Positions 12,159 through 15,340 of a stretch of DNA of 64,000 nt are shown here, piece after piece. The position numbers and the translations under genes were made by a program. Each line of letters begins with the position of its first letter. Position 1 is the stretch's first letter. A model generated the notes under the pieces. That model was not told the origin of the DNA. It did not search any database and saw nothing but the letters and a program-made list of their open reading frames with translations. The DNA lies in sequence record NZ_CP012903.1, one strand, 5' to 3'. The stretch comes from a plasmid.

Positions 12159-12176
12159 TACTGTATAAATGTACAG
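12159..12176. promoter_or_regulatory. LexA (SOS) box upstream of the umuD-like gene
   Basis: TACTGTATAAATGTACAG fits CTGT-N8-ACAG. It lies 17 nt upstream of the ATG. Confidence 0.7.
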
Positions 12177-12192
12177 CGTAAGAGAGGCATTA

Positions 12193-12630
12193 ATGTCACT
12201 AAAACCTATGAAATCAGCCCCAGACACCAAAGAAACTATCCCTTTCTTTGGCGAGCTCGTACCCGCAGGTTTCCCTAGCCCTGCTGCTGGGTGGGAAGAG
12301 GCTGAACTTAATCTTCATACGCTGGTGGTCACTCATCCAGCCAGCACGTACTTCTTGCGCGTGACAGGTGACTCCATGCAGGATGCTCGGATACATTCTG
12401 GTGACGTGCTGGTGGTTGATCGCTCAGAAACTCCAGAGCAGGGTAGTATTGTTGTTGCCAGCATCGACAACGAATTCACAGTCAAGAAACTCATCTTGCG
12501 GCCACGTCCATGCCTTATGCCGATGAACCCGGCATACCCACCTATCTATTTTGACCCTGAAAGTAACGACGTTGAAATTTGGGGTGTGGTGACTTACTCA
12601 TTAATGAAGCACAAAAAATGTATGGCCTGA
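12193..12630 (+). CDS. UmuD/MucA/RumA-like SOS mutagenesis protein (145 aa)
   Basis: LexA-like S24 peptidase: AG cleavage site (VPAGFPSPAAG), Ser (GDSM) and Lys (VKKL) motifs. The start was taken at the RBS-linked ATG downstream of the LexA box. Confidence 0.8.
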   Translation: MSLKPMKSAPDTKETIPFFGELVPAGFPSPAAGWEEAELNLHTLVVTHPASTYFLRVTGDSMQDARIHSGDVLVVDRSETPEQGSIVVASIDNEFTVKKLILRPRPCLMPMNPAYPPIYFDPESNDVEIWGVVTYSLMKHKKCMA

Positions 12631-13883
12631 TCGACATTAATTCCTGCTACTGTGCCTGCGAGCAAGCATTCAGGCCCGATCTTGCTGGTAAACCCGTAGT
12701 AGTTTTGTCAAACAATGATGCCAGCTGCATAGCCCGTAACAAGCAGGCGAAAGCCCTTGGTATAAAAATGGGCGAGCCATTCTTTAAAATCAAAGATCTC
12801 ATAGAACGGAACAATGTCGCTGTTTTCAGTTCAAACTATGCCCTTTATTCCGCATTTAGTTCCCGGTTTGCATCTGTTATAGAGTCACTGACTCCGCGTA
12901 GCTCAGTGTATTCAATCGATGAACTTTGGTTTGATGCCACGAATATCACTGGTTTAATGACTCTTGATGCCTATGGCCGCATGTTGCGAGAAGAGGTACA
13001 GCGTCAGACAACGCTTACTTGTGGTGTTGGGATAGCACCGACAAAAACACTCGCTAAATTGTGTTCTCATGCTTCAAAAACCTATCCGGCAACTGGCGGA
13101 GTTGTCGCGCTTGATGATGTTACCCGTTTAGAAAAGCTGATGCGGCTTGTGCCCGTTGAAGACGTGTGGGGTGTTGGCCCACGGCTGGGTAAAAGGCTTC
13201 GGTTTATGGGAGTGGAAACCGCGTTTCAACTATCCTGCCTTGATCCTGTTCGGGTACGAAAGCAGTATAATGTTGTCCTTGAGCGTACCGTCAGGGAACT
13301 CCGAGGGGAGCCTTGCATGGCGCTTGAAGAAAATGATGTGATGAAACAGCAAATAGTCGTTTCCCGCTCCTTCGGTGAGCGAGTCACCAACCTTCATGAA
13401 ATGCAGCAAGCCATAACCGATTATGCGGCTCGCGCTGCCGAAAAACTCCGGCAAGAAAAAGGGTATGTCTCTGTAATTGGTGTTTTTATACGCACCAGCC
13501 CCTACGCAGTAAATGATGTACCTTATTCCAATCAGGCTACTGAAATGCTGGTGACTCCCTCCAACGACAGCAGGGATATTATTAATGCTGCACAACGCGC
13601 ATTAAAACGGATCTGGAGGCCAGAAGTCCGTTATGCTAAAGCAGGTGTGATGCTTTGTGATATTCGCGAGCGTGAGCCTCAACTTGATTTGTTCACTGAA
13701 TCGGCCCAGTACCGCAACAGCGAAAATCTCATGCAATTACTGGATACTCTCAACAAGCAGGGTAGACACAATTTGTTTTTTGCCGGACAAGGTATAAACC
13801 CCGTTTTCGCAATGAAGAGAAATATGCTATCCCCTGCATATTTGACTAGCTGGGATGATTTACCAAAGGTTAGGTTAGGATAA
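12618..13883 (+). CDS. UmuC/MucB/RumB-like Y-family DNA polymerase (about 421 aa)
   Basis: MYGLIDINSCYCACEQAFRPDLAGKPVVVLSNND...VWGVGPRLGKRL. It overlaps the umuD-like 3' end, as in umuDC operons. Confidence 0.85.
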   Translation: MYGLIDINSCYCACEQAFRPDLAGKPVVVLSNNDASCIARNKQAKALGIKMGEPFFKIKDLIERNNVAVFSSNYALYSAFSSRFASVIESLTPRSSVYSIDELWFDATNITGLMTLDAYGRMLREEVQRQTTLTCGVGIAPTKTLAKLCSHASKTYPATGGVVALDDVTRLEKLMRLVPVEDVWGVGPRLGKRLRFMGVETAFQLSCLDPVRVRKQYNVVLERTVRELRGEPCMALEENDVMKQQIVVSRSFGERVTNLHEMQQAITDYAARAAEKLRQEKGYVSVIGVFIRTSPYAVNDVPYSNQATEMLVTPSNDSRDIINAAQRALKRIWRPEVRYAKAGVMLCDIREREPQLDLFTESAQYRNSENLMQLLDTLNKQGRHNLFFAGQGINPVFAMKRNMLSPAYLTSWDDLPKVRLG

Positions 13884-14122
13884 GCCCACTAACCATCAAA
13901 AAGACATAATTTTTCCTTGGTGTTTCACTTCGCCCCCCTCACTCGTCCGGCAGCGCAATTTGGTTCTCAAGGTTACGTGTTCAAAAACAGCTATAAGATT
14001 ATGGTCACGCGCTGTAAGCCATGCCAGAACAAAATAAATTGGATTTTTTCGTAATGAAAATATAGCGACGAACGTTGCAAAACAGTTTTATTGCTACAAT
14101 TCCCCTTGTTGGCTAAAATACA

Positions 14123-14140
14123 TACTGTATAAACTGACAG
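14123..14140. promoter_or_regulatory. LexA-like box upstream of the tus-like gene
   Basis: TACTGTATAAACTGACAG fits CTGT-N8-ACAG. It lies 11 nt before the ATG at 14152. Confidence 0.55.
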
Positions 14141-14151
14141 GGGTATCCGCT

Positions 14152-15036
14152 ATGGATTTAAAAAAAACATTTGAACAGCTTACGGACGATTTACTCGCCC
14201 TGAAAATGCTGATCAGCGGTAGCTCGCCTCTGTTTTCCCAAGTCTCCGACATTCCGCCCGTCCTGCGGGGGGATGAGCATTTACCCATTTCGTATGTTGC
14301 CCCTGATCACCTGTACGGCCATGAGGCCATTCAGAAGGCGGTTGATATCTGGAGTGACCTGCACATCAAGCATGATTTTTCCCAGAAGTCTGCACGTCGT
14401 GCATCCGGTGTTCTGTGGTTTCCATCAGAAGATAATGCGTTTACGGTCGAGCTCGTTCGCCTGCTGAGCCAAATCAATGCCCTGAAAAAGAGTATTGAGA
14501 CTCACATCATTACGACCTACCAGACACGTAGCGCACGATTTGAAGCCCTGCATAATCAATGTGCCGGGGTGCTGACTTTACATCTTTACCGTCAGATCCG
14601 CTGGTGGAAGGATGAGCATATATCAGCCGTGAGATTTAGCTGGCAAGAAAAGGAGTCTTTGCTCATTCCTGACAAAGCTGAGTTACTCGTGCGTATGAGC
14701 AAGGAAGGTAGGGAGGATGGGAAAAAAGAGGTGCCGCTTGCGTTGCTGATGAAGCAGATCGTTTCCGTACCGGAAGAACGACTGCGTATAAGGCGTCGTC
14801 TCAAGGTTCAGCCATCGGCAAACATCTCGTTCCGTAGCGAGCAACACCCGACTGGGAAGCTGACAATGGTCACGGCTCCGATGCCCTTCATTATTATTCA
14901 GAATGAACGGCCAGAGGTGAAAATGCTCAAAATCTATGATGCGAATGAGCGAATCAGCCGTAAGCGACGTAACGACAAAGTGCATACGGAAATCCTCGGT
15001 ACGTTTCATGGCGAAAGTATCGAAGTGATTGCCTGA
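14152..15036 (+). CDS. Tus-like DNA replication terminus site-binding protein (294 aa)
   Basis: Collinear similarity to E. coli Tus across the protein: ARRASGVLWF..INALKKSIETHI matches AAVRLPGVLCY..INKLKTTFEHIV; ARFEALH...LTLHLYRQI matches ARFEWVH..LITLNAYRTL; RLRIRRRLKVQP matches KLKIKRPVKVQP. Confidence 0.75.
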   Translation: MDLKKTFEQLTDDLLALKMLISGSSPLFSQVSDIPPVLRGDEHLPISYVAPDHLYGHEAIQKAVDIWSDLHIKHDFSQKSARRASGVLWFPSEDNAFTVELVRLLSQINALKKSIETHIITTYQTRSARFEALHNQCAGVLTLHLYRQIRWWKDEHISAVRFSWQEKESLLIPDKAELLVRMSKEGREDGKKEVPLALLMKQIVSVPEERLRIRRRLKVQPSANISFRSEQHPTGKLTMVTAPMPFIIIQNERPEVKMLKIYDANERISRKRRNDKVHTEILGTFHGESIEVIA

Positions 15037-15070
15037 TAAGGTTTTTCTGGACATTATCCTTTGGTAGTAT

Positions 15071-15090
15071 TACTGTATATGTATACAGTA
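15071..15090. promoter_or_regulatory. Consensus LexA (SOS) box upstream of the dinI-like gene
   Basis: TACTGTATATGTATACAGTA is a perfect palindromic SOS box. Confidence 0.8.
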
Positions 15091-15106
15091 AATTACCGGG
15101 GGGTAT

Positions 15107-15340
15107 ATGTTACGTATAAATGTGTGTTTCGATGCCAGCAAGAAAGTGCCTGCTAAAATCCAGCAGGCATTACGAGCTGAGATAGAGAAAGAGATCTTGT
15201 CTAATTACGAACGTGGTGTGGTAAGCGTGGGGAAGGGAAGCAGTGCAGAAGTGTCGATCAGTGGCGTTGATGATGATGAAAAAAAAGTAATAATGCAGAA
15301 GCTTGAAGACATCTGGCAAAGTGACAGCTGGTTGCCTTGA
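15107..15340 (+). CDS. DinI-like damage-inducible protein (77 aa)
   Basis: Size and DinI-family pattern (...VSVGKGSSAEVSISG...IMQKLEDIWQSDSW) with an SOS box immediately upstream. Confidence 0.65.
   Translation: MLRINVCFDASKKVPAKIQQALRAEIEKEILSNYERGVVSVGKGSSAEVSISGVDDDEKKVIMQKLEDIWQSDSWLP

Follow-up and report, generated by a model that had tools for sequence, protein, structure and literature searches.

The DNA analyzed here is a stretch of 64,000 nucleotides (nt) from plasmid record NZ_CP012903.1 (hereafter, the window), in which positions 12,159 to 15,340 carry a compact set of genes for a UmuDC-like polymerase pair, a Tus-like replication terminus site-binding protein and a DinI-like protein. 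The genes form three units, and each unit is preceded by a putative operator for LexA, the repressor of the SOS response. The window belongs to an IncT plasmid and is 99.9–100% identical to pT-OXA-181 from ~10.7 kb rightwards. The module consists of the following features:

12017–12158, + strand: IncT backbone upstream of umuD with the umuDC promoter region (alignment boundary and promoter matches)
12159–12178, no strand assigned: predicted LexA box 1, umuDC operator, TACTGTATAAATGTACAGCG, 21.4 bits
12193–12630, + strand: umuD homologue, 145 amino acids (aa; profile matches and alignment to 8GMT)
12618–13883, + strand: umuC homologue encoding a Y-family polymerase, 421 aa, its start overlapping the end of umuD by 13 nt
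14077–14151, + strand: conserved tus promoter block with box 2 and ribosome-binding site (promoter match and cross-lineage conservation)
14123–14142, no strand assigned: predicted LexA box 2, before tus, TACTGTATAAACTGACAGGG, 15.7 bits, the weakest of the three
14152–15036, + strand: plasmid-type tus, encoding a replication terminus site-binding protein, 294 aa (profile matches and alignment to 1ECR)
15048–15076, + strand: dinI promoter with -35 TGGACA (15048–15053), 17-nt spacer and -10 TACTGT (15071–15076), read from the sequence
15071–15090, no strand assigned: predicted LexA box 3, near-consensus dinI operator, TACTGTATATGTATACAGTA, 28.0 bits
15107–15340, + strand: DinI-like gene, 77 aa (PF06183 and a weak end-to-end alignment to 1GHH)
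15361–15392, + strand: intrinsic terminator-like hairpin closing the module, a 10-bp stem with 5 G-C pairs followed by TTTTTTT

The first-pass annotation of this DNA had placed a CTGT-N8-ACAG site immediately upstream of each unit, and this was borne out: as 20-mers, the sites at 12159–12178, 14123–14142 and 15071–15090 end 14, 9 and 16 nt before the starts of umuD (12193), tus (14152) and dinI (15107), respectively. The window contains four CTGT-N8-ACAG matches against 0.71 expected, and three of the four fall inside this 3-kb stretch and have the AT-rich spacer that is looked for in operators of the LexA regulon; the spacer of the fourth match (62603) is GC-rich. Bit scores were obtained with a rough weight matrix for LexA, derived from an informal set of E. 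coli sites, which as a positive control picked up the known LexA site of the intI1 promoter in pT-OXA-181. After the three boxes, the next-best matrix site in the window scores 15.1 bits. Composition-matched random sequence, 5 Mb in all, yielded 2.2 sites per Mb with 15.7 bits or more and none with 21.4 bits or more. The description of box 3 as perfect needs qualification: it agrees with the consensus at 19 of the 20 positions, a match found in none of 100 shuffles, but its palindrome is near-perfect rather than perfect, because the centre reads AT before the axis and GT after it.

The position of the boxes relative to the promoters, which are consensus matches only, is also that of LexA-regulated genes, with each operator overlapping the promoter or directly following it. 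Upstream of umuD, the promoter candidate TTGAAA-16-TAAAAT (12117–12144) lies 15 nt upstream of box 1, and an alternative, TTGCAG-18-TATACT (12133–12162), read by eye, overlaps the box. Three tandem heptamers, AGTTGAA AGTTGAA AGTTGAT, were observed at 12109–12130 upstream of umuD, where they yield three overlapping -35-like hexamers. The tus promoter is near-consensus (-35 TTGCTA at 14091–14096, 17-nt spacer, -10 TAAAAT at 14114–14119), and box 2 begins 3 nt past its -10 hexamer. In the dinI promoter, the -10 hexamer TACTGT doubles as the left arm of box 3. A search for terminator-like sites returned none for the umuC-tus and tus-dinI intervals and a strong one after dinI (15361–15383).

Profile searches upheld the proposed identities of the four proteins. 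UmuD matches Peptidase_S24 (E = 1.9e-27) and NF007621 (148 bits, cutoff 110); when it is aligned with E. coli UmuD (8GMT), ELVPAGFPSPAA falls opposite DLVQCGFPSPAA with Ala-Gly at the C24-G25 cleavage position, and the catalytic Ser and Lys are present, the former in a retained GDSM and the latter in FTVKKL. UmuC, a full-length Y-family polymerase, matches NF002955 (571 bits against a cutoff of 431) and contains the domains IMS, IMS_C and DUF4113. The pair thus combines the attributes of a UmuDC-type DNA polymerase V (Pol V), namely an S24 fold with a cleavage site and Ser-Lys dyad in UmuD and catalytic and little-finger domains in UmuC. The 77-aa protein matches PF06183 (E = 7e-13, 49.1 bits against a cutoff of 24.2) and falls short of the E. 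coli DinI equivalog NF007893 (32 bits against 111), so that DinI-like is the correct label.

The 294-aa protein lies inside the Tus family, matching PF05472 over residues 3–283 (E = 1.6e-45, 155.9 bits against a cutoff of 22) and NF002810 (430.9 bits against a cutoff of 323). It is a distant relative of E. coli Tus (phmmer against 1ECR, E = 1.8e-17, 66 bits), and its score with TIGR02648, the equivalog of chromosomal Tus, is 99.5 bits against a cutoff of 178.3, which marks it as a plasmid-type paralogue and not a chromosomal orthologue. Residues conserved in the alignment to 1ECR are P42, E49, I79, K89, F140, H144, G149, K175, R232, K235 and Q237. Among these are I79, F140, H144 and G149, all identical together with E49; Mulcair and colleagues reportedly showed in 2006 that these four line the pocket holding the flipped cytosine when Tus-Ter is locked. 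Some of the aligned DNA-contact positions differ, A173 being aligned to Q and R198 and Q250 not being conserved. Judged by its residues, the plasmid protein thus appears to be a functional polar fork-arrest protein whose DNA specificity differs.

A plasmid-borne Tus is not in itself unusual, since tblastn detected a homologue in 1,332 of the 72,556 plasmids of PLSDB, mostly IncC, with others in Vibrio, Aeromonas and Pseudoalteromonas. Tus-like genes were reportedly pointed out already in the 2002 genome paper of Rts1, the IncT prototype, which carries two tus genes, the second of the Morganellaceae type as in pBML2531. Mobile plasmid-borne tus genes were described by Galli et al. 2019 (PMC6549158), and the Tus proteins of an IncT plasmid from Proteus vulgaris (AP004237) and of IncA/C plasmids are mentioned in PMC4036041.

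LexA control of three separate units is the best reading. Comparison across plasmid lineages indicates that the tus box is no accident: together with the dinI box, it is kept at the orthologous promoters of two diverged lineages that retain the tus-dinI pair. One comprises large plasmids of Klebsiella, Citrobacter and Serratia (rep_cluster_2127, hereafter rep_2127; Tus 69–70% identical) and the other is the metagenomic contig L033 (Tus 55% identical), one of only two further loci contributed by a scan of metagenomes. Between IncT and rep_2127, the 75-nt tus promoter block is ~92% identical, compared with ~68% for the tus coding sequence and ~46% further upstream. Because Rts1 and the rep_2127 plasmids, which have no umuDC upstream, keep this block and its box, tus has its own promoter. 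The orthologues of box 2 are TACTGTATAAACCAACAGGG (16.5 bits; loci L013–15 and L032), which is the rep_2127 box, and TGCTGTATAAAAACACAGGG in L033 (18.3 bits). Across the three lineages, both arms, CTGT and ACAG, are exact and the 8-nt spacer differs (ATAAACTG, ATAAACCA, ATAAAAAC), as would be expected of a site for a palindrome-binding dimer such as LexA. The DinI proteins linked to tus are 86% (rep_2127) and 76% (L033) identical to the IncT protein. Upstream of their genes, CTGGACATT and box 3 are invariant in the three lineages and the intervening spacer diverges, so that between IncT and the 70%-identical lineage only the -35 element, the box and the ribosome-binding site of the dinI promoter are conserved. 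The orthologues of box 3 score 24.2–26.3 bits; the rep_2127 box consists of TACTGTATAT, then GTGT, ACGT or GCAT, then ACAGTA, and that of L033 is TACTGTATATACGTACAGTA (25.0 bits). For umuD, a near-identical box precedes the gene in Providencia huashanensis (locus L017), and in the distant pF2119 lineage (Citrobacter, Serratia, Kluyvera) a strong box, TACTGTATGGATATACAGCA (24.5 bits), is equally placed before it. The umuDC-tus adjacency is shared by IncT and this pF2119 lineage, in which Tus is 41% and UmuC 47% identical.

In a neighbour-joining tree of 16 Tus proteins, the lineages with a box all fall into a single clade, separate from the IncC-type tus. Within that clade, IncT, rep_2127 and L033 have the canonical CTGT-N8-ACAG at tus, with dinI in all three, umuDC in IncT and a umuC remnant in L033. 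In the sister clade, made up of Morganellaceae plasmids, the second tus of Rts1 and pF2119, ATGG or ATGT replaces CTGT at the same promoter position (11–12.6 bits), and umuDC is present in pF2119. The tus promoters of the IncC type (pAQU1, Aeromonas and others) have no LexA box, and no linked genes of the module were found there; a Pfam search of the tus neighbours in the other lineages gave no further SOS-type genes. The simplest history suggested by these sequences is an ancestral umuDC-tus under LexA, from which one subclade would have departed, through weakening or repurposing, while the other retained it.

The arrangement of the tus promoter implies that LexA may not be its only ligand. 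Conservation throughout the promoter, spacer included, suggests that a second protein binds there, and the motif TGTTGGCTAAAAT (14107–14119), which overlaps the -10 hexamer, is a candidate Tus operator or Ter-like element. Akin to it are TGATGGTTAAAAT in L033, TGATGGTCTAA in the IncC type and TGTTGGCATAT in L009, a Proteus plasmid, all upstream of tus, and it has TGTTG in common with the E. coli Ter core TGTTGTAACTAA. The E. coli tus gene is autoregulated by way of a ter site (TerB) within its promoter (PMC10331603), and by analogy the plasmid gene may be under dual control, by Tus itself and by LexA.

Taken together, the predicted operators, their positions and their conservation lend good support to the prediction that host LexA represses three promoters and that activated RecA (RecA*) induces them. 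Each promoter would have its own LexA operator, PumuDC driving a Pol V-type polymerase, Ptus the fork-arrest protein Tus and PdinI a modulator of the RecA filament, and as long as the DNA is undamaged LexA dimers on or just past the -10 elements would keep all three units low. Repression is predicted to be loosest for tus, because the weakest box stands there behind a near-consensus promoter, which would leave basal Tus for ordinary termination, and tightest for dinI on account of its near-consensus operator. DNA damage, and probably also entry of the plasmid in single-stranded form, would produce single-stranded DNA (ssDNA) and RecA filaments, leading to self-cleavage of LexA and induction of the three units, upon which Pol V would pass lesions and DinI would temper RecA*. 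The added Tus would load on one or more putative Ter sites of the plasmid, one candidate for which overlaps the tus promoter itself, as in the E. coli TerB-tus arrangement, and more Tus would mean a stronger polar fork barrier near the origin. Such a barrier would halt run-on, rolling-circle and recombination-dependent replication, which are favoured while RecA is active, keeping the plasmid monomeric and stable. This last part is modelled on plasmid R1, which without Tus forms rolling-circle intermediates and multimers and segregates poorly, and on the observation that ter sites restrict chi- and RecA-driven recombination-dependent replication on plasmids; fork traps in general are thought to limit over-replication (PMC10331603).

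Overall, we regard it as probable, though well short of certain, that the locus is a umuDC-tus-dinI module repressed by host LexA and induced by damage or by plasmid entry, in which the extra Tus restrains run-on and recombination-dependent replication of the plasmid; LexA binding, induction in vivo and its order, the Ter site and the purpose of Tus induction are what we infer within it. The broader proposal that one mobile tus clade was recruited to the SOS response and is inherited with Pol V and DinI as a damage-inducible fork barrier, capping recombination-dependent or run-on replication of its plasmids, is put forward tentatively and with more doubt than confidence. Several points weigh against the explanation as a whole. 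LexA binding and induction are predictions, and the purpose proposed for inducing Tus is borrowed from R1 and engineered plasmids. The weight matrix depends on an informal set of 21 E. coli sites, and with it box 2, at 15.7 bits, ranks below 20 of the 21, which are themselves part of the matrix. LexA control is doubtful in the sister clade with its ATGG or ATGT sites, and the largest group of plasmid tus genes, the IncC type, has no LexA box, so that SOS control is no general requirement for a plasmid Tus. Finally, the window contains neither a Ter site of the E. coli type nor a second copy of any segment upstream of tus.

An alternative reason for the same regulation would be timing at plasmid entry (zygotic expression): Tus, Pol V and DinI would be made in a burst when the arrival of ssDNA transiently induces the SOS response, would help the first rounds of replication to terminate and would then fall to low levels. 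Baharoglu and colleagues are said to have found in 2010 that entry of ssDNA by conjugation induces SOS in recipient cells. The module also lies in a backbone stretch of small open reading frames (ORFs) by repA, in a conjugative MOBH/MPF_F family, and the presence of psiA on the backbone implies that the plasmid interacts with the SOS response. Yet umuDC and dinI are classical damage-response genes, and the sequence offers nothing to separate entry-timed from damage induction. Entry-timed expression is in our view possible, short of probable; it overlaps the LexA-controlled, damage-induced module preferred here, with which it is non-exclusive, as the regulation is identical and the selective reason alone differs.

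Two further explanations concern Tus and the DNA it would bind. It is conceivable, if unlikely, that box 2 is not a working LexA operator and that tus is autoregulated through a Ter-like operator, the CTGT-N8-ACAG being a relic or part of the Tus site. The weakness of box 2 relative to the other two sites would fit this, as would the conservation of the whole tus promoter, compared with hexamers and box alone in the dinI promoter, which suggests a second bound protein; in addition, the pattern TG(T/A)TGG..TAA over the -10 element is shared with IncC-type promoters, where it forms an inverted pair without a LexA box, and the sister lineages have ATGG or ATGT for CTGT. The exact arms with a changing spacer in three lineages are nevertheless unlike the asymmetric 23-bp Ter, both flanking units bear undoubted LexA boxes, and chance alone gives matches of 15.7 bits or more at the 2.2 per Mb given above. 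Slightly less likely again is an action of the induced plasmid Tus on the host chromosome, at Ter or Ter-like sites, altering host termination or fork progression under stress. The shared fold family and lock pocket of the plasmid and chromosomal proteins would allow for it, and IncT hosts possess Tus-Ter systems (PMC8707476). The similarity to E. coli Tus is low, however (66 bits, and 99.5 bits against the TIGR02648 cutoff of 178), positions that contact bases differ (A173 aligned to Q; R198 and Q250 not conserved), the window is devoid of E. coli-type Ter, suggesting a different specificity, and mobile tus also occurs in hosts without a resident Tus-Ter system (PMC6549158). The earlier idea of an interference with chromosomal Ter sites is thus unsupported, the protein being distant from E. 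coli Tus with differing contact positions and matches to the Ter core occurring at chance level.

This chance level follows from the search for Ter-like sites that the first-pass annotation had called for, in which the core GTTGTAAC gave a single match in the window, at 54334, against 1.44 expected. No match to the extended 16-mer E. coli Ter consensus was found in the window with up to 3 mismatches, and the best match there to the 23-mer TerB had no fewer than 8 mismatches. When every 20-mer of the umuC-tus spacer was compared with the whole window at up to 5 mismatches, only the likeness between boxes 1 and 2 and matches in a Tn3 transposase gene were returned. A search for Ter as the degenerate motif TGWTGGYYWAAAAT with one mismatch allowed turned up no further convincing copy, whether in the window or elsewhere in pT-OXA-181, in a scan that did not recover the promoter copy itself, which deviates from the pattern at two positions. 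GTTGCAAAAC at 14073 was rejected as a Ter core, its GTTG part not being conserved in the 70%-identical lineage. Xie et al. 2021 obtained no ter sites for the Tus of Pseudoalteromonas with the E. coli consensus (PMC7858055).

In its first unit, the module resembles the plasmid SOS mutagenesis operons mucAB of pKM101, impCAB of TP110, samAB and rumAB of R391, in which a LexA box precedes a umuD-like gene for a self-cleaving subunit and a umuC-like gene for a Y-family polymerase with overlapping frames. In impCAB, the small DinI-like ImpC belongs to the same SOS unit, whereas the IncT DinI-like gene is a separate unit, placed downstream instead of upstream, with its own promoter and operator, and tus with a third operator lies in between. 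To our knowledge, none of the classical plasmid SOS mutagenesis operons includes a tus gene. Of these operons, mucAB and samAB are mentioned in PMC7092418.

The second unit resembles the E. coli Tus-TerB locus (1ECR, 2I06) in the full-length family match, the lock-pocket residues and the presence of regulatory DNA in the gene's own promoter. The E. coli chromosomal gene, in contrast, is controlled by Tus at TerB and not known as an SOS gene, and IncT tus differs from it in having a LexA box, no E. coli-type Ter and a distant protein product. A plasmid-type Tus encoded close to the origin is shared with the mobile tus systems of IncC (IncA/C) plasmids, pAQU1 and a Pseudoalteromonas chromid (PMC6549158, PMC7858055, PMC4036041), whose presumed role is to impose unidirectional replication or a fixed terminus and whose Ter sites do not match the E. 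coli consensus. Unlike IncT, the IncC-type tus promoters lack a LexA box and nearby umuDC or dinI and have an inverted TTGCATGATGGTCTAA pair instead. The functional model for a fork barrier near a plasmid origin is provided by the ter sites of R1 and R6K, the loss of which results in rolling-circle replication and multimers (PMC10331603); those plasmids carry ter sites only and borrow the host Tus, while the IncT plasmid supplies its own, apparently under the SOS repressor.

On plasmid tus under LexA or SOS control, and on a umuDC-tus-dinI module, nothing relevant was returned within the limited literature searched, and the reviews of Tus biology consulted made no mention of LexA or SOS. SOS-controlled plasmid umuDC, DinI-like partners and plasmid tus are each already known. 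The regulatory link between LexA and tus is credible and conserved, as judged from sequence. The purpose of bacterial fork traps is debated, one leading idea being that they limit over-replication started by recombination (PMC10331603). If our explanation is correct, a Tus wired to the SOS response would be a natural test system for this idea, in which the signal of RecA repair also raises a fork-arrest protein, and the damage-inducible barrier would be a natural, regulated case of a fork trap that limits over-replication. IncT and related large plasmids bear carbapenemase genes such as OXA-181 and NDM, and SOS-inducing antibiotics would then co-induce a mutagenic polymerase and a possible plasmid-stabilizing factor. 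Should LexA control fail, the locus would be an ordinary plasmid umuDC operon beside an ordinary plasmid tus.

Other tus loci showed further features of their own. In every IncC-type gene examined (IncC, pAQU1, and contigs of Aeromonas, Shewanella, Photorhabdus, Xenorhabdus, Edwardsiella and Pseudoalteromonas), the 16-mer TTGCATGATGGTCTAA is present as an inverted pair whose members are ~200 bp apart and flank a CT-rich tract, with the proximal copy ~60 bp before tus (L005 3715–3928; L007 3705–3928; L006 616–839; also L010, L020–L023, L026 and L027). The inverted pair looks like a miniature two-site fork trap or an operator pair for the IncC-type Tus. In the Morganellaceae and pF2119 lineages, a conserved GC-rich hairpin (CCCC...GGGGGG) follows the degenerate ATGG/ATGT-N8-ACAG box (at about 3925–4000 in L003, about 4925–5000 in L016 and about 3930–4000 in L008, and also in L004), and a second element, CCCTTTTTCGGGG, stands directly before the tus start codon; neither is found in IncT, and they may be part of a leader or attenuator. 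In L033, an inverted, fragmented umuC remnant (2053–2396, - strand) immediately precedes the tus promoter and matches residues 237–279 and 355–416 at 45–51% identity. Upstream of tus in rep_2127 (L014 1–4012, L015 1–4136) are CRISPR-associated genes for Cas6, a DEAD/DEAH helicase and a RAMP protein, which resemble a plasmid-borne type IV system.

The setting of the module was compared among IncT plasmids found in Proteus, Providencia, Citrobacter and Escherichia. Positions 11900–16000 match pT-OXA-181 of Citrobacter freundii (NC_020123.1, IncT, 83.7 kb) at 100% and the Providencia IncT plasmids at 99.2–99.5% identity, and the tus-dinI part is 99.6% identical to Rts1. To the left of ~10.7 kb, the mer transposon differs from that of pT-OXA-181; its terminal repeat ends near 12016, where the alignments to other IncT backbones begin. 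The mer operon at 10560–11460 appears degraded relative to that of pT-OXA-181, the region being 195 bp shorter, with a merC-like ORF of just 68 aa, a merT ORF that continues beyond its normal end and a merP ORF that shifts frame after KVEG; these defects could be true pseudogenes or assembly indels.

On its right, the window extends to the start of repA. The repA gene of p18004577_Rts spans 155–1177 (record CP098042.1; PMC9845711), and the module occupies 4295–9595 of MW864328.1, a record of the same length as CP098042.1. From these coordinates, combined from two records of one plasmid, the module appears to be part of the IncT backbone, a few kb from repA and the origin in insertion-free plasmids. 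Between repA and umuD lies a hotspot for insertions, occupied by the mer transposon in the window and by an integrase island that truncates umuD in P. huaxiensis, and in Rts1 transporter genes take the place of umuDC. The backbone around the module, beside repA, carries many small same-strand ORFs, belongs to the conjugative MOBH/MPF_F plasmid family and includes psiA, a gene for plasmid SOS inhibition. An Rfam scan of 11900–16400 gave no match. The window has 11 copies of the motif (C)TATTCGACC(C), where 3.7 would be expected, and all are on the + strand (positions include 15409, 15949, 17068, 42548, 47058, 48704, 54299, 54801, 61529 and 61993), mostly directly after a terminator, with a -10-like GATAAT or TAGAAT following ~14–17 nt later and a small backbone ORF beyond. 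The copies look like related promoters of the backbone or like sites bound by a plasmid-encoded regulator; a regulator of the FlhC family is encoded on the plasmid.

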